IMG/VR virus record: IMGVR_UViG_2778261515_000018
Location: 1 to 28,775 of that record
Length of the DNA stretch: 28,775 nt
Reading direction: 5' to 3' (one strand)
Source: a virus
Lineage: Duplodnaviria > Heunggongvirae > Uroviricota > Caudoviricetes
Part shown: piece by piece, positions 2,185 through 8,935 of the stretch
Position numbering within the stretch: position 1 is the stretch's first letter
Layout of the letters: each line of letters starts with the position of its first letter
Program-made: the position numbers and the translations under genes
Notes under the pieces: generated by a model
Seen by the model: only the letters and a program-made list of their open reading frames with translations
The model's database searches: none
Told to the model about the DNA's origin: nothing

Positions 2185-2481
2185 TCAGTCATTACTGATA
2201 GCGCCATAGCGTGAGCGGTAATTACGCAGGCGCGGATCGATATATTCAGGGAAGTGGGTATATGTGGCTTTGCGGAATGGTCGGATTGATGTCTGGTAAA
2301 TTCGCTCGCGTTCTTCTTTCTCTGCAAGCCATATACAATGGCGAAATTCCTTTTCCTCTTTCGTTTCCTGCGGTAGCGACATTATCCGATCGTAGTTTTT
2401 TCTGAATTTATCCAGCACCTCCGACACGGAATTGCCGGAACAGCGGCGCGCGTCGTCCGCACCATACAGAGGCGCTGGCAT
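2185..2481 (-). CDS. Hypothetical protein (98 aa); size and position reminiscent of P22 Abc2 but not verifiable here
   Basis: Track ORF; AAGGA upstream of ATG; lies downstream of erf and the ssb-like gene in the leftward operon. Confidence 0.5.
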
Positions 2482-2504: not shown

Positions 2505-2888
2505 TTAGAAGGGAATTGAATCGTCGTATTCAGGATGATTTTGATGATTGCTACTTTGCTGCTGTTGGCTGTTTCCTGAAGTTGCAAATCCAATCTTTGC
2601 ATTCAGTAATTCAAGAGTGATTGATTGACCATTTTGCCCCTGATAAACATCAACCCTGATGTTTTCTCCGGTAATTTCAACAATGCCACCTTCAACAAGA
2701 ACACTACGGTAGTAATCCGCTTGCGCTCCCGGCTTGGCAAATACAACGGCGCTGTAGTTTGTCCATTCTTTCTTTTTTGTCTGGCGATCGTAATACTGAA
2801 CGCCAGCACGGATGTTGAATCCGATATTTTCCCCGGCCTGAAACTCTCTTGCGGGTTTGTTTAGTCTTACAGTAATCGAATGTGCCAT
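2505..2888 (-). CDS. Short SSB-like OB-fold protein with C-terminal acidic tail (127 aa)
   Basis: Start ATG overlaps erf stop (TAATG); AGGAG RBS. Gly/Gln-rich linker (SGNSQQQQSSNHQNH) then C-terminal EYDDSIPF, the hallmark SSB tail (DDDIPF-like); core resembles SSB strands (WTNYSAVVFAKPG...IVEITGENIRVDVYQGQNGQ). Confidence 0.55.
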   Translation of the reverse strand: MAHSITVRLNKPAREFQAGENIGFNIRAGVQYYDRQTKKKEWTNYSAVVFAKPGAQADYYRSVLVEGGIVEITGENIRVDVYQGQNGQSITLELLNAKIGFATSGNSQQQQSSNHQNHPEYDDSIPF

Positions 2889-3493
2889 TAAGCAGCCGCT
2901 CCTTCTAATTCGTCTCGTCTGATGTTGTAAACGTCCTGCGCTTTGTGCTGCTCCGGTGTGCCTTCGAGCATCTTCCACGCTTTGGCGAACGCCTGTTTAA
3001 GCTCTTCTACGGTGTTTTTCTGCAATGCTGCGTCAGTGAATGCTTTTAGAACCTGCTCAGGTGTATGTGATGGCTTTGATTGCTTTGCTGCTGCGTTCTG
3101 CTGATGTTTATGCTCGTCGGTATCTGCATCTTTCGCATCATCAATGCCGAACAAACCATTGAGGCAATACTTGCGTGCATAAGAGCTTGTAGCTCCCGTA
3201 ACTTGTGCAGAATCCATTCCTTTCTTGCTTTCTTCCTCTCGTGCAAGAGCGGTTGCCGTATGACTGTTTTCACCATCGGTAATAGTTGCCGTGGCTTTCA
3301 CGTAATACCGATCACCAATCAACACAACTTCATCGCTGATTGATAAAAACAGGCCATTCAGTAACGGCTTAACGCCTTCAAGAATGTCTTCGCAGCTTCT
3401 GTATTTATATTTACCGAATGAGTTGTACTGATTCTTTGGCGCGTTCAGATTCTCCTGAATAGCTGCCAGTCTTGCGTAAAATTCTTTGCTCAT
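2888..3493 (-). CDS. erf: Erf single-strand annealing recombinase (essential recombination function)
   Basis: Translation from the internal ATG (MSKEFYARLAAIQENLNAPKNQYNSFGKYKYRSCEDILEGVKPLL...) matches the Erf family as I recall P22 Erf. Track ORF is extended upstream from a TTG. Confidence 0.85.
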   Translation of the reverse strand: MSKEFYARLAAIQENLNAPKNQYNSFGKYKYRSCEDILEGVKPLLNGLFLSISDEVVLIGDRYYVKATATITDGENSHTATALAREEESKKGMDSAQVTGATSSYARKYCLNGLFGIDDAKDADTDEHKHQQNAAAKQSKPSHTPEQVLKAFTDAALQKNTVEELKQAFAKAWKMLEGTPEQHKAQDVYNIRRDELEGAAA

Positions 3494-3503
3494 ATGATTG
3501 TTC

Positions 3504-3674
3504 TCAGAATGGACACGGCCCAAGGAAATAACGCTGATTTAATACTTCAGTCTTTGCCGCATTTAAAAATACGCGAACACCTTCACGATCTCCCTTCTGG
3601 CGATACATTAACGCCTGCTGCGTGTACATGCGTCTCTGTAACTTGCTCTCCTTCACTGTGGTTGCAAGTGACAT
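3504..3674 (-). CDS. Hypothetical small protein (56 aa) immediately upstream of erf
   Basis: ATG at 3674 preceded by AAGGAG with 6-nt spacer; stop 10 nt before erf start. Overlaps the next ORF by about 90 nt in another frame. Confidence 0.4.
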   Translation of the reverse strand: MSLATTVKESKLQRRMYTQQALMYRQKGDREGVRVFLNAAKTEVLNQRYFLGPCPF

Positions 3675-3753
3675 GAATATCTCCTTCGTTACCGATTAAT
3701 TCTTTCATCTGACGAATGAATTCTTCGTCTGACCAGTTGTCTGTAAAACTCAT
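3583..3753 (-). CDS. Hypothetical small protein (56 aa), start coupled to kil-like stop
   Basis: ATG overlaps the stop of the kil-like ORF (ATGA). C-terminal part is low complexity and overlaps the 3504..3674 ORF, so one of the two may be non-coding over the shared stretch. Confidence 0.3.
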   Translation of the reverse strand: MSFTDNWSDEEFIRQMKELIGNEGDIHVTCNHSEGEQVTETHVHAAGVNVSPEGRS

Positions 3754-3902
3754 TTCCTGCGATACCACGGATGGTTGATAGCTGATTTCATCTCTTTATT
3801 TGCTTCAAGCCACATTTTGGAATCACCAATAAATCTGGCTATTACTGCTTTATTTTGTGCAGCGCGAAGCATCTGGTGATTAATGGCTATTTCATTGCGC
3901 AT
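3750..3902 (-). CDS. kil: Kil-like small protein (50 aa), possible host division inhibitor
   Basis: Hand-translated MRNEIAINHQMLRAAQNKAVIARFIGDSKMWLEANKEMKSAINHPWYRRK; GAGG RBS; directly downstream of cIII as in lambda. The IARFIGD motif resembles lambda Kil as I recall it (memory-based). Confidence 0.45.
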   Translation of the reverse strand: MRNEIAINHQMLRAAQNKAVIARFIGDSKMWLEANKEMKSAINHPWYRRK

Positions 3903-4018
3903 AACAAGACCTCAACTCTTTTCCATCCGTCACGTAATTTACGGGTGATTCGTTCAAGTAAAGATTCATTTAATTGGAAGGCACCCATGCGAGCGCCTCC
4001 CGCGATTGCGTAAATCAT
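3887..4018 (-). CDS. cIII: CIII, inhibitor of FtsH that stabilises CII
   Basis: Hand-translated MIYAIAGGARMGAFQLNESLLERITRKLRDGWKRVEVLLCAMK; the ESLLERITRKLRDGWKR core matches lambda CIII; AAGGAA RBS. Confidence 0.8.
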   Translation of the reverse strand: MIYAIAGGARMGAFQLNESLLERITRKLRDGWKRVEVLLCAMK

Positions 4019-4042: not shown

Positions 4043-5011
4043 TTAGTAGGTTATTTTTGTTGCGAATACTTCGCCTTTTACGATGGCTGTTATGATATTT
4101 TTAGCAACATCTTCTGATGCGCCAACCTTGATAAGGTCAGCAAGTATTTTGTTATTTACTTCTTTCCGGTGAGCTTTATCCTTTGCTCTACGCTCTTCTT
4201 CTTCCTTGATTCTTTTTTCTTCTGCTATTCTGGCTTGCTCTTTTGCTTCAGCCTCGCGCCGGATTCGTTCAGCCTCCTCCTGTGCTTTTCGGCGTTCTGC
4301 TTCAATTGCCGCCTGCTTTTCTCTTTCAGCTCGTTCTGCTGCCTCTTTTGTTTCGCGCTGTGCTCGTTGCTCGGCTTCAATGCGTTCACGCTCTGCACGT
4401 TCCGCTGCGGCCTTAGCTTCTGCTTCTCGCCTTGCTGCTGCTTCAATTTCGGCTTTTGCCTTTGCTTCGGCTTCAGCTCTGGCTTTCTCTTCAGCTTCTC
4501 TTTTTAAGCGTTCTTCATGCTCTCGCTTTTCCTGCTCCGCTTTGAGTCTTGCCTCTTCTCTTTGGCGGTCAAATTCGCGATCCATCAAAATCGCTATTTC
4601 ATGGTCAGACTCAATTTGCTTTGCGAGAGCTTCAGCTGCTGCCTTAGCTTCTTCTTCAGCTTTAATTCGCGCCTGTTCCTCTTCATAATCAGTAAGAGGC
4701 TGGCGTGCCTTGGCTTTCAGCTCATCAAGGCGATCGCGCACTGTCTTGCGGTTGGCATCAATTAGCTTTGGAATTTCCTTCAGTTCAGCAACAAGGTCTT
4801 TTCCAAGACCATCGAGATATGTTTTCGTCTGCGCAACTTTATACGCCAGAGAAGCGATCTCCTTTCTGCCCTTTGCCGTTGTGATATCAGGCACAAAGGA
4901 CATAACTTCACGTTCAACCTTTTGAAGGATTTCTTCAATCTGGTCGGCAGACTGAAATACAGTCATTGCATTTGCTTTTTCAATAACAACTAAATCTGTT
5001 ACTTCACTCAT
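4043..5011 (-). CDS. Coiled-coil protein with a long Glu/Arg/Lys/Ala-rich helical repeat region (322 aa)
   Basis: Track ORF trimmed to the ATG at 5011 (GGAGG 4-5 nt upstream). About 150 residues of EAEAKAKAEIEAAARREAEAKAAAERAERER-type repeats. Confidence 0.7.
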   Translation of the reverse strand: MSEVTDLVVIEKANAMTVFQSADQIEEILQKVEREVMSFVPDITTAKGRKEIASLAYKVAQTKTYLDGLGKDLVAELKEIPKLIDANRKTVRDRLDELKAKARQPLTDYEEEQARIKAEEEAKAAAEALAKQIESDHEIAILMDREFDRQREEARLKAEQEKREHEERLKREAEEKARAEAEAKAKAEIEAAARREAEAKAAAERAERERIEAEQRAQRETKEAAERAEREKQAAIEAERRKAQEEAERIRREAEAKEQARIAEEKRIKEEEERRAKDKAHRKEVNNKILADLIKVGASEDVAKNIITAIVKGEVFATKITY

Positions 5012-5028
5012 ATATCCTCCGTCAAAAA

Positions 5029-5048
5029 AATTGCCCTCACACCGGAGG
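5029..5048 (-). terminator. Intrinsic terminator in the pL operon (tL-like)
   Basis: Minus-strand RNA GCCCUC CGGUGU GAGGGC followed by AAUUUUUUU, immediately upstream of the RBS of the 4043..5011 gene. Confidence 0.55.
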
Positions 5049-5145
5049 GCAAAGAAGATTTCCAATAATCAGAACAAGTCGGCTCCTGTTTGGTTACGAG
5101 CGACATTGCTCCGTGTATTCACTCGTTGGAATGAATACACAGTGC

Positions 5146-5514: not shown

Positions 5515-5985
5515 CTAGTAGAATACCCAATTTTCTGTTTCTTGGTTGTGTCCAAAGTTATATTCAATATCTGGTGTTGATGTATCAATATTTTTCATCC
5601 CATCAACAAGAGTTGATACAACAGCCAAATCTTGTTTTATCCTCATTAAATGGTATTTCTTCCGGCGCAATAAACTTTCAATAGCAAGTTTCTTCGTTGG
5701 GAATGCAAAAGATCTTTCTGCATTTTTTGCTACTTTCTTAATTGCATATCTATTTCTCCTTTGTTTCCATTCCTGTAACCACTGATTTGGTGCTGGTTTA
5801 AAATTAACAATCCAATGCGCAGGAACCAACCATGCATAATGCTCTGTCTGATGAAAAGCTATATATTGAAGTGCGAATATTTTGATTCCATCTTCTTCAA
5901 CTGTCGCTTGGAATCTCCAGAAAACAGGCATTCCCTCATGTTCAGTTTCTGATTCAGGAAAAGGTACGCTCCATGATTTTGTCAT
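5515..5985 (-). CDS. Hypothetical protein (156 aa), A+T-rich cargo gene in the pL operon
   Basis: Track ORF; GAGGTGA RBS; no recognisable motif; visibly lower G+C than neighbours. Confidence 0.6.
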   Translation of the reverse strand: MTKSWSVPFPESETEHEGMPVFWRFQATVEEDGIKIFALQYIAFHQTEHYAWLVPAHWIVNFKPAPNQWLQEWKQRRNRYAIKKVAKNAERSFAFPTKKLAIESLLRRKKYHLMRIKQDLAVVSTLVDGMKNIDTSTPDIEYNFGHNQETENWVFY

Positions 5986-6323: not shown

Positions 6324-6632
6324 TTACCTCGCTGTAATTAGTTTTTGCCTTCTGTAACCAGCAGCATACAGTGCAACTTCAGGCAAACAAACGCTTCCGC
6401 TATTCGCATCTGTATTTGATTTGCTAATGATGCCGAGTGATATTGCTTTTTCAGAAATGCTTAAACGCTTTCTCGGGGCTTCCTGAACAGGTTCCTCACT
6501 GTCTGTGCCGAAGATCGAATCGATGATGTTGCATATAGCATCACGCTCGATAGCCAGCTTTCTGCGCCGCTCATGACGGCGAGTTTTGGCATTTCCTGCA
6601 AATGTTGATTTTCCGTACACGATTACCGTCAT
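6324..6632 (-). CDS. N: Antitermination protein N, P22 gp24-type
   Basis: Internal ATG of track ORF with GAGGAA RBS; N-terminal arginine-rich motif GNAKTRRHERRRKLAIERD matches the P22 N peptide; cognate P22-type boxB lies upstream. Confidence 0.85.
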   Translation of the reverse strand: MTVIVYGKSTFAGNAKTRRHERRRKLAIERDAICNIIDSIFGTDSEEPVQEAPRKRLSISEKAISLGIISKSNTDANSGSVCLPEVALYAAGYRRQKLITAR

Positions 6633-6751
6633 GATATTTTCCTCATGTGAAATGGCTTTGGTGGTAATGCGCCAGATGCTGATCTTCTGGTTGCTGTCGT
6701 TGCTGCTGCAATTCACATCACCGCCAAACCCATCTCGTTTGGTATCTGTTT

Positions 6752-7085: not shown

Positions 7086-7271
7086 TTACAGAGCAAAGAG
7101 ATCATGCATTAGGTTGCTGTTCATCTGGTGGTTGAATTGATACGGCTCCAATTCCTTCTTGATCTCGTTCAGGTGTTGTTCCGCTTTTTTTGCCAGATCG
7201 TGACCTTCTTGGATCTGGCTTTCCAACATCTTGTTGAGAATTTCCATCTCCGGTTGCAGATTCTTCGGCAT
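7086..7271 (-). CDS. Possible small overlapping ORF (61 aa) at the 3' end of the peptidase gene
   Basis: Alternative frame MPKNLQPEMEILNKMLESQIQEGHDLAKKAEQHLNEIKKELEPYQFNHQMNSNLMHDLFAL with GAGG about 9 nt upstream of ATG; could be a separate gene, a frameshift product or chance. Confidence 0.25.
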   Translation of the reverse strand: MPKNLQPEMEILNKMLESQIQEGHDLAKKAEQHLNEIKKELEPYQFNHQMNSNLMHDLFAL

Positions 7272-8103
7272 TAGCTTTTTCCTCTTTTTGTAGATACGTT
7301 GTACAATCAATAACCCTCGGCTTTCCAAATGTTGGAATGTCACCATTATGAATTTTGTCACAGAAAAGATTATAGAGTATTTCTGTTATACCTTTAGGAT
7401 GCTCAACACACTTGAAAAGTTCCTTGGCTTCTTTTCTGTCTATAACAAATCCATGTGAAGGATATGAGGCTATTAGTTTGCCTAACGCCCCTTCTTTTAG
7501 GCTGCTTGGTTTGTCTGCTAATCGTTGGCCATAAGTGATAGCTATACTCATTGCGCGCTGATGTTCACCAAGCTTTATTGGATCTATCTGTGCGGCCATA
7601 GGTGCTATCAACGCTTCTGTAAGTCTGGTCGCGATATCAGCAGACATTTTAGTACTTATCTGATTTTCGTATCTTATCTTAACAAGGTGTGAGTTAAACG
7701 CTGAAATAGAGCGTTCCTTTAGAGCATCAAGAGCTGTCATGATAGCTAAACCAGAACTCATCTCACCTATTTCATCGTTTTTTTTCAGTTGGATATCTAA
7801 TGGCCCAAGCTCCCCCATGTCACCAATAACAAGTTTATTGGCTGCTATAGCTATTAGTGTACCAGCACTTTTGCATGGTCCAACAACTAAAAGTGTTACC
7901 GTTTCATAATGGTGTTGTAGAGCTCTACCTATACGATAACCTGCATTTGGATCACCGCCATAAGTAGCAACACAGAAGATAACATTCTCTTTTAATCCAT
8001 GTTGTGACTTACGTTTCTTGATTTCATTGGTGAGATCAAGATAACCATCACGATGAATATCGCCTGTATACACATAAACATCATGATTTTCAATAGAATT
8101 CAT
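7102..8103 (-). CDS. Clp/SppA-fold (S14/S49-like) serine peptidase-like protein (333 aa) in the position of lambda rexAB
   Basis: Track ORF; AGGGAG RBS 8 nt upstream of ATG. Motifs ATYGGDPNAGYRIGRAL and LVVGPCKSAGTLIAIAANK align by eye with the ClpP oxyanion and catalytic-Ser regions; no obvious ClpP His motif, so a Ser/Lys dyad is possible. C-terminal ~70 residues low complexity. Same strand as cI, 115 bp downstream. Confidence 0.65.
   Translation of the reverse strand: MNSIENHDVYVYTGDIHRDGYLDLTNEIKKRKSQHGLKENVIFCVATYGGDPNAGYRIGRALQHHYETVTLLVVGPCKSAGTLIAIAANKLVIGDMGELGPLDIQLKKNDEIGEMSSGLAIMTALDALKERSISAFNSHLVKIRYENQISTKMSADIATRLTEALIAPMAAQIDPIKLGEHQRAMSIAITYGQRLADKPSSLKEGALGKLIASYPSHGFVIDRKEAKELFKCVEHPKGITEILYNLFCDKIHNGDIPTFGKPRVIDCTTYLQKEEKANAEESATGDGNSQQDVGKPDPRRSRSGKKSGTTPERDQEGIGAVSIQPPDEQQPNA

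Positions 8104-8218: not shown

Positions 8219-8935
<717 letters not shown>

Follow-up and report, generated by a model that had tools for sequence, protein, structure and literature searches.

Phage annealases (Redβ, RecT, Erf, and Sak4) drive recombineering, and poorly understood partner factors set limits on how well they can be moved from one host to another. In lambda and P22, Gam, Abc2, and Arf are encoded by accessory genes beside the annealase in the early-left (PL) operon. In Firmicutes phages, Mu-Gam-like, DUF2483, DUF1351, or Sipho_Gp157 genes are located upstream of erf or sak4, and analogous functions have been suggested for them (PMC8093625). Here, we describe a gene on the minus strand at 4043..5011 of the Caudoviricetes record IMGVR_UViG_2778261515_000018 (positions 1 to 28,775, the whole of which is referred to as the window herein). 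The gene belongs to the same family as those of Sf6 gp33 and D3 Orf53 (phrog_1376), and the protein of D3 is built of the same three parts (head, helix, and tail) as the window protein. Like Gam, Abc2, and Arf, it is an early PL-operon gene beside an annealase, but those proteins are much smaller. With DUF1351 (PF07083), DUF2483, Sipho_Gp157, and Mu-Gam-like genes it shares the slot beside the annealase and the same promiscuity toward annealase families.

We found that the gene is intact and that its family is linked near-universally to recombination modules, independently of annealase type. Its products have a tripartite architecture in which a spacer of constrained length carries a conserved sequence signature of single alpha-helices (SAHs). 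Earlier records already cover the gene and its PHROG family, whereas the family size, the architecture, the conserved spacer, and the near-obligate annealase linkage may be new. In the literature searched, the coverage of which was incomplete, we found neither a report of these features nor a functional description of Sf6 gp33 or D3 Orf53-like proteins. An earlier note on this DNA, made from the sequence alone, had called the role of the gene unclear. The tight linkage to recombination modules narrows the role.

An intact gene in the early-left operon

The gene and its upstream signals are as follows.

4043..5011, minus strand: Sf6 gp33 / D3 Orf53-like gene, complete, 322 codons plus stop (open reading frame (ORF) and translation)
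5015..5020, minus strand: Shine-Dalgarno sequence GGAGGA, 3 nt before the ATG at 5011 (direct sequence reading)
5024..5052, minus strand: strong intrinsic terminator, hairpin 5052-5031 with an 8-bp stem, 5 G-C pairs, and a T7 tail (terminator scan)

The reading frame runs from an ATG at 5011 to a stop codon at 4043-4045 and yields an uninterrupted 322-aa product, in which residues 179-256, quoted in the earlier note, are present verbatim. A TTG-initiated alternative ORF of 340 residues begins at 5065 and would cross the terminator hairpin (5052-5031) and its T-run. Because this ORF spans the terminator and the ATG at 5011 is preceded by GGAGGA, we take 5011 as the true start. The terminator lies directly 5′ of the gene and is the counterpart of tL2A, annotated before Sf6 gene 33. 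The gene is thus located as the earlier note had placed it, in an early operon, here PL, where it follows a P22-type N gene and the tL2-like terminator. From the position of the terminator, expression of 4043..5011 would be expected to depend on N antitermination, making it a delayed-early PL gene.

The window protein is identical to Sf6 gp33 at 320 of 322 residues with no gap, and phrog_1376, annotated in PHROGs as 'unknown function', matches over residues 1-322 (E=7.2e-110). At ≥95% nucleotide identity the gene is present in 530 of 5426 complete E. coli genomes (∼10%), and in 496 of these 530 genomes the copy covers ≥80% of it. Given the near identity to Sf6 gp33, the uninterrupted ORF, and its occurrence in 530 E. 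coli genomes, an error of frame in the low-complexity region is excluded. The exact 322-aa sequence had no record in the protein collection. The plus-strand shadow ORFs that had been reported opposite the gene are real (4169..4507, 4206..4688, 4517..4765, and 4710..4925).

Linkage to annealing recombinases

In the window, erf lies 550 bp downstream of 4043..5011 in a common operon. To place this arrangement in context, we collected 243 loci from three viral-contig scans and clustered the family proteins at 80% identity. An annealase gene was found at most four genes away in 49 of the 52 clusters with downstream sequence, mostly at position +1 and on the same strand. The clusters were distributed over the annealase types as follows.

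Erf: 27 clusters
RecT: 10 clusters
Bet-type: 5 clusters
N70, an unnamed 286-residue protein with an SSB-like acidic tail: 4 clusters
Sak4: 3 clusters

YqaJ or DUF3799 exonucleases and SSB accompany these annealases. Most of the apparent exceptions proved to be gene-calling or seed artifacts and contain RecT or a recombination exonuclease. The linkage recurs in five distant annotated phages, each of a different genus (D3, Seahorse, Eta, Piluca, and Shewanella 1/41); for instance, the Orf53 gene of D3 is directly upstream of erf. Upon analysis of species-representative genomes, recombination genes were found within 3 kb in 40 of 53 loci, and the hosts of the 53 loci include Gamma-, Beta-, and Alphaproteobacteria, Desulfuromonas, Terriglobus, and a planctomycete. 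Several of these loci are ordered Erf-YqaJ-X-SSB, where X is the family gene, which puts the gene inside the recombination module. As the linkage is both stronger and broader than lambdoid gene order alone, we place the protein in the recombination module.

The linkage does not follow any single annealase. One cluster of ≥80% identity pairs with Erf 18 times and with RecT 16 times, and in the cluster to which the window protein belongs the counts are 43 for Erf, 4 for Sak4, and 4 for RecT. Near-identical copies beside different annealases imply that the protein tracks the host lineage and the whole module rather than one annealase. Direct, specific binding to the annealase is disfavored, since clusters of ≥80% identity pair interchangeably with Erf, RecT, and Sak4.

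N70 itself merits a separate remark. This 286-aa protein (loci L242, L291, and others) has no Pfam match and ends in DDDVPFD, like the C-terminal tail of SSB. In its four clusters, it is found where an annealase would be expected, between the gp33-like gene, which it follows directly, and a YqaJ exonuclease, and it may represent an unrecognized annealase family.

A head, a charged helix, and a C-terminal module

The product of the gene can be divided into the following parts.

4682..5011, minus strand: conserved N-terminal head, residues 1-110 (family alignments, AlphaFold2, and head profile)
4562..4876, minus strand: amphipathic, heptad-periodic stalk, residues 46-150, overlapping the head (hydrophobicity power at period 3.5)
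4157..4561, minus strand: ER/K/A segment of SAH type, residues 151-285 (charge pattern; modeled helix)
4046..4156, minus strand: conserved C-terminal module, residues 286-322 (family alignments)

Family alignments show the tripartite layout of head, charged helix, and tail with the ending [IV]-x-[YF]-COOH in the window protein, and this layout is conserved among phages as far apart as those of E. coli and Pseudomonas D3, Vibrio Seahorse, Serratia Eta, Alcaligenes Piluca, and Shewanella 1/41.

In the AlphaFold2 model, the head consists of short helices at 12-20 and 22-38 followed by the start of a long helix at residue 46. Invariant or near-invariant positions are D42, T45, G48, R49, S54, A56, K63, D67, G70, K71, K78, D85, R88, R92, D96, R103, P105, and E110. 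The N-terminal ∼120 residues had been described as structured-looking; the region is mostly the amphipathic, heptad-periodic base of the long helix, together with the two short helices. Over residues 46-150, the hydrophobicity power at period 3.5 reached z=5.8 (p=0.001), and this stalk is a candidate segment for coiled-coil oligomerization or other helix packing. The stalk, the C-terminal module, and the genomic context were all overlooked in the earlier reading. Profile and domain searches with the head only matched no characterized family. Against the PDB, the head profile found nothing significant; the best match, the Rad50 hook coiled coil (E=0.15), is a lead only. Weak matches to Pfam DUF5856 (PF19174) were seen for 11 of 102 aligned members (best E=0.06), and in the D3 protein this match covers residues 19-103, nearly the entire head. 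DUF5856 may therefore be a remote relative of the head.

The charged region is rich in Glu (28%), Ala (24%), Arg (16%), and Lys (11%) over residues 111-290, and its core (160-285) contains ∼5% large hydrophobic residues (ILVMFWY). Neither Pro nor Gly occurs in the 175-residue stretch between P105 and H281. An excess of opposite charges at i/i+4 is a sequence hallmark of ER/K single alpha-helices. Within residues 151-285 we counted 53 opposite-charge i/i+4 pairs (z=+7.4 relative to 2000 residue shuffles) and only 4 same-sign pairs, a depletion (z=-5.5). Opposite-charge pairs were not enriched at i+1, 2, 3, 5, or 7, and the segment lacked a hydrophobic periodicity of 3.5 residues (z=-0.2). The i/i+4 excess exceeded z=3 in 94% of 102 family representatives sharing ≤50% identity, with a family median of z=4.6. 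AlphaFold2 modeled the 322-aa protein with helices at 46-204 and 219-295 around a low-confidence break at 205-218 (predicted local distance difference test (pLDDT) <50), and a natural 197-aa variant as a continuous helix from 46 to 170 (pLDDT ∼90-97 at residues 80-150). The very long helix in these models, the charge pattern, and the missing heptad seam support the earlier proposal of an ER/K-type single-helix spacer: residues 151-285 carry the SAH signature and may form a monomeric helix. At 0.15 nm per residue, the segment would be ∼20 nm long, or ∼26 nm counted from residue 111. The repeat does not exist as such at the DNA level. Tandem Repeats Finder arrays were weak (scores 36-46) and direct repeats were 61-72% alike, so that a true tandem DNA repeat is rejected; the repetition is compositional and cryptic.

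The resemblance to known ER/K spacers (the lever-arm extensions of myosin VI and X, caldesmon, and INCENP) is one of analogy, not homology. In comparison to classic E4K4 motifs, the segment is richer in Ala (24%) and Arg. Unlike the eukaryotic spacers, it is viral or bacterial and follows a heptad-periodic segment, and its behavior as a monomer is a prediction.

The C-terminal module spans ∼40 residues and is preceded by an R-E-A-D-x-x-H motif. Its consensus, H+..iN..A...L...G..e..Ak..v..Ia.G.iP.v.I.Y-COOH, with a near-invariant Ile-x-Tyr-COOH end, lays out a helix, a Gly turn, a second helix, and an extended tail with the terminal Tyr. The last residue is Tyr or Phe in 111 of 139 representatives. 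Against the PDB, the tail profile gave just weak matches to UBA or RuvA-domain-III-like helix-turn-helix folds (E 0.03-2), which we regard as a lead only. P22 Arf (PF17585) was considered for the tail and rejected, as the hmmscan match was faint (E=0.13, with the D3 tail) and the hhalign probability was 0.16%.

Family size and spacer length

With a cut-off of E≤1e-3, the head profile retrieved representatives of at least 5,651 clusters formed at 50% identity, of which 5,062 were at E≤1e-10, and the typical family length is 320-370 residues. Pfam gave no convincing match for 102 diverse members and none for the window protein at E≤10. Searches of Pfam, NCBIfam, and PADLOC with the whole protein, the isolated head, the isolated tail, and the 102 members likewise returned nothing above noise; the recurrent weak matches (Baculo_PEP_C, DUF5856, and EzrA) are coiled-coil-like or sub-threshold. 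A sequence search of the PDB with the whole protein found nothing significant, and structure-based searches gave no informative match. The search for the contigs encoding three divergent representatives returned short contigs only.

The length of the helix is maintained across the family. Between P105 and H281, 102 divergent sequences have a median of 195 residues (interquartile range 182-207, standard deviation 20). This set was drawn from sequences of 290-390 residues, a range that excluded only 8 of the 110 sequences with a Met start and a Tyr or Phe end. Constraint on length is likewise suggested by the 496 of 530 E. coli genomes in which the copy spans ≥80% of the gene. In most members from outside Enterobacterales, the stalk is enlarged by an inserted helical 'middle domain' of ∼70 residues, and the charged helix is shorter to match. 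The window protein has no middle domain and carries a longer charged helix in its place. Judged from these sequences, the conserved quantity is overall length rather than sequence. The middle domain has the pattern …I.ID.S..EFE.EA...K..AL..L…EAEQAELERLR (for example in L002:3989-5053, P0169, P0171, and P0174); it is duplicated in P0171 and lies farther along the helix in P0163.

The earlier note had asked whether the repeat varies in length among homologs and whether some lack it. Every full-length homolog retains the helix, with an N-terminal domain that matches no characterized family, and the spacer length is constrained as given above, although shorter alleles of 197-266 aa exist. A common allele of 245 aa (P0016 and P0022 are examples) is the window protein minus 77 residues. 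It corresponds to a 231-bp deletion between two GCCTTAGCTTCT microhomologies, at the EAKAAAE stretches of residues 121-127 and 197-203 (window 4410..4650). Among the 'partial' database entries, many reflect breaks in assembly or frameshifts in the low-complexity helix region.

Public data also hold chimeric or damaged relatives (P0081, P0003, P0007, P0115, P0159, and P0168). In P0081, the first 80 residues are fused to the C terminus of Abc2, which implies a deletion from cIII through ssb in a prophage. P0003 is frameshifted into the shadow frame, and P0007, P0115, P0159, and P0168 have unrelated C termini.

Proposed role and alternatives

We propose that the protein plays an accessory part in the single-strand-annealing recombination module of the phage. 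It would be a tripartite cytoplasmic protein, a location suggested by the lack of any hydrophobic segment (maximum Kyte-Doolittle 19-residue mean 1.03). The head would be helical, and its heptad helix (∼46-150) probably mediates self-association. An unbroken ER/K/A single alpha-helix of ∼135-175 residues, stabilized by i/i+4 Glu-Arg/Lys salt bridges, would act as a semi-rigid spacer of 20-26 nm and lead to a small helix-turn-helix-like module ending in Ile-x-Tyr-COOH. Two specific ends joined by a length-maintained SAH-like helix suggest neither an enzyme nor a simple inhibitor but a molecular tether or ruler that would hold head-bound and tail-bound partners at a fixed distance. Because the family does not depend on the type of annealase, these partners would more likely be conserved host factors or DNA than the phage annealase. 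The cytoplasmic location, oligomerization, the tether/ruler role, and the host or DNA partners are all steps that we infer, and we assign this composite model a probability of roughly 40%. Several points weigh against it. Early-operon order in temperate phages is conserved for non-functional reasons as well, such that synteny alone could mislead, and P22 and lambda recombine without this gene. The AlphaFold2 models derive from shallow alignments (22-23 sequences) and have low predicted template modeling scores (0.34-0.41). Neither the sequence nor an AlphaFold2 model of a monomer can prove a monomeric single helix, and an Ala-rich two- or three-stranded coiled coil is possible. Lastly, the natural alleles with much shorter helices (197-266 aa) argue against a strict ruler.

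Two alternatives concern the structure and the identity of the protein. One is that the charged region forms a two- or three-stranded coiled coil with an Ala core, or an antiparallel hairpin, instead of an SAH, an arrangement that would be compatible with any functional model. Ala makes up 24-31% of the charged region, the adjoining residues 46-150 are heptad-periodic, a weak 11/3 periodicity is present (z=2.8), the break at 205-218 in the 322-aa model could be a hairpin turn, and the same alternatives are discussed for TolA domain II. Set against this are the missing 3.5-residue periodicity, the scarcity of large hydrophobic residues in 160-285, and the i/i+4 excess, which is the exact spacing of intrahelical salt bridges. 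The 197-aa variant is modeled as one unbroken helix, and the 77-residue deletion would shift the register of a hairpin. We therefore judge the hairpin of the 322-aa model, with its low-confidence break, to be an artifact, and a multi-stranded structure in general to be improbable, if still a contender to be reckoned with. The other alternative comes from public annotation, in which RefSeq/PGAP and several phage records name the family 'cell envelope biogenesis protein TolA', and would make the protein a phage-borne TolA homolog in the cell envelope. TolA domain II is indeed a long Ala- and charge-rich helix of comparable length with an i/i+4 charge excess in E. coli (z=5.9, versus 7.7 here), and two relatives reach 15.7 and 21.4 bits with the tolA_full model, both below its cut-off of 59.45 and over the helix only. 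The window protein, in contrast, has no membrane anchor (its maximum of 1.03 compares with 2.45 at TolA residue 14), no TolA domain III, and no Pfam or NCBIfam TolA match, and composition-adjusted BLASTP to E. coli TolA gave E=0.21. Its helix is built of Glu, Ala, Arg, and Lys, whereas TolA has 41% Ala and 20% Lys. The gene is not part of a tolQ-tolR-tolA-tolB-pal cluster; within a prophage PL operon, N precedes it and cIII/kil/erf follow. With the anchor, domain III, and a significant alignment all missing, we reject TolA homology as extremely improbable. The likeness to TolA domain II drawn in the earlier note is real as far as the i/i+4 pattern goes, but it is an analogy of helix type with a different composition. 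By sequence criteria, the TolA label is a compositional artifact, the public annotation is systematically wrong, and the name should be corrected.

Two further alternatives concern function. The protein could be a host-nuclease inhibitor or DNA-end protector, an analog of lambda Gam, Mu Gam, or P22 Abc whose head or tail binds RecBCD, another exonuclease, or DNA ends. Its gene lies 5′ of the annealase gene as in lambda gam-bet-exo, in a slot that in Firmicutes phages holds the Mu-Gam-like, DUF2483, DUF1351, or Sipho_Gp157 genes noted above (PMC8093625), and its indifference to annealase type would fit a host target. Also in favor, recognizable Abc2 or lambda Gam was found within ∼6 kb in just 4 of 57 family clusters; the window itself, however, has abc2, as do 42 of the 55 loci of its cluster. 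The protein also lacks the acidic surface of a DNA mimic (net charge ∼-2 for the head and ∼-1 for the helix), and the known inhibitors are small, such that a conserved spacer of ∼195 residues would have no obvious use in one. We consider an inhibitor of this kind unlikely. A function unrelated to recombination, such as host takeover, anti-defense, or regulation, would instead explain the adjacency by early-operon order and mosaic boundaries. Consistent with this, an annotated mosaic 'boundary sequence' and a terminator border the Sf6 gene, with cIII, kil, and small ORFs lying between it and erf, P22 and lambda do not have the gene at all, and it swaps freely relative to the annealase. Yet the linkage persists in non-lambdoid phage types and across bacterial classes, it is kept where non-orthologous annealases from four or five families have replaced one another, and in some lineages the gene stands between the exonuclease and ssb. 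PADLOC gave no match for the protein. An unrelated function thus seems to us doubtful, to about the same degree as a nuclease inhibitor.

Returning to the accessory tether/ruler, a bolder form of it would make the family an unrecognized, near-universal component of annealing modules in phages of Gram-negative bacteria. Such a protein would self-associate and use SAH arms of ∼20-25 nm to couple any annealase to a conserved host structure, such as the replisome, the SSB-coated lagging strand, or DNA ends; as a whole, we hold this to be rather unlikely. If the protein is such a coupling component, the cognate protein should raise recombineering efficiency or widen host range, and no SAH 'ruler' of a bacterial virus would have been assigned a function before it. 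Found alongside all these annealase families and having neither a Pfam model nor an assigned function, the gene is a candidate accessory factor, and its product is predicted to hold a rare prokaryotic or viral example of a long ER/K-type single alpha-helix of conserved length. Even if unrelated to recombination, this is a well-delimited and widespread orphan family of defined architecture.

Comparison with other recombination-module genes

The location beside erf, recT, or sak4 that is common to DUF1351 and the family described here is a positional analogy only. For the comparison, we used a Pfam-verified DUF1351 protein of Enterococcus phage LG62 together with 15 relatives. A motif of 24 residues (K.L.AE.K...KK.D.ER..V+) is common to the DUF1351 protein and the head. 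Nevertheless, the DUF1351 Pfam model was outside the 25 families most matched by the 102 members even at E≤10, and hhalign gave a probability of 0.5-1.3% over 23-24 columns with a shallow DUF1351 profile (effective number of sequences (Neff) 1.6). At the level of sequence, homology to DUF1351 is not shown, and DUF1351 has neither the long charged helix nor the C-terminal Tyr module. Sipho_Gp157 co-occurs with the family gene in some loci, which implies that the two are not simple alternatives. Lambda Gam, Mu Gam, and P22 Abc2 gave no sequence or fold match to the window protein. Identity with Arf, Gam, or Abc2 was tested and rejected, since no sequence or profile similarity was found and abc2 is a separate gene in the window.

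Neighboring genes in the window

The operon is a lambdoid, P22-like early-left operon on the minus strand. It includes the genes below, along with an Ead/Ea22-like gene and several small genes.

8219..8932, minus strand: cI-type repressor
7102..8103, minus strand: rex-position gene, 333-aa protein
6324..6716, minus strand: P22-type N, with the arginine-rich motif GNAKTRRHERRRKLAIER read from the translation
3887..4018, minus strand: cIII
3750..3902, minus strand: kil
2888..3493, minus strand: erf, ERF-family single-strand annealing protein (Pfam ERF 2.4e-44; phrog_155)
2505..2978, minus strand: phage ssb (phrog_44, 1.2e-29)
2185..2481, minus strand: abc2, P22-type anti-RecBCD (74% identical to a protein matching Pfam Anti-RecBCD_p2 at 1.2e-43)

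The product of 7102..8103 has a region resembling ClpP/SDH-type serine proteases, with a Pfam SDH_protease match of 4e-7 that is below the cut-off and an NCBIfam Clp_like_SDH match of 3e-9 that is far below it; its PHROG is phrog_21683 ('unknown function'). With the cI repressor on one side and N on the other, the gene is placed like rexAB in lambda, and it had no PADLOC match. It may be a moron expressed from the prophage.

Between kil and erf, a 61-aa ORF (3583..3768, minus strand) shares only SDEEFI with P22 Arf (pairwise BLASTP E=0.014). Klebsiella-type loci (L072, L076, and L078) have a clear Arf homolog (…NLSAERQNPVISWDEFAGNFQ) between the gp33-like gene and erf. Farther upstream in the window, the early-left gene at 5515..5985 (minus strand) encodes a 156-aa protein of phrog_1636 (E=7e-112), the function of which is not known and which had no match in Pfam, NCBIfam, or PADLOC. 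A terminator-like hairpin is located at this gene (5516-5499).

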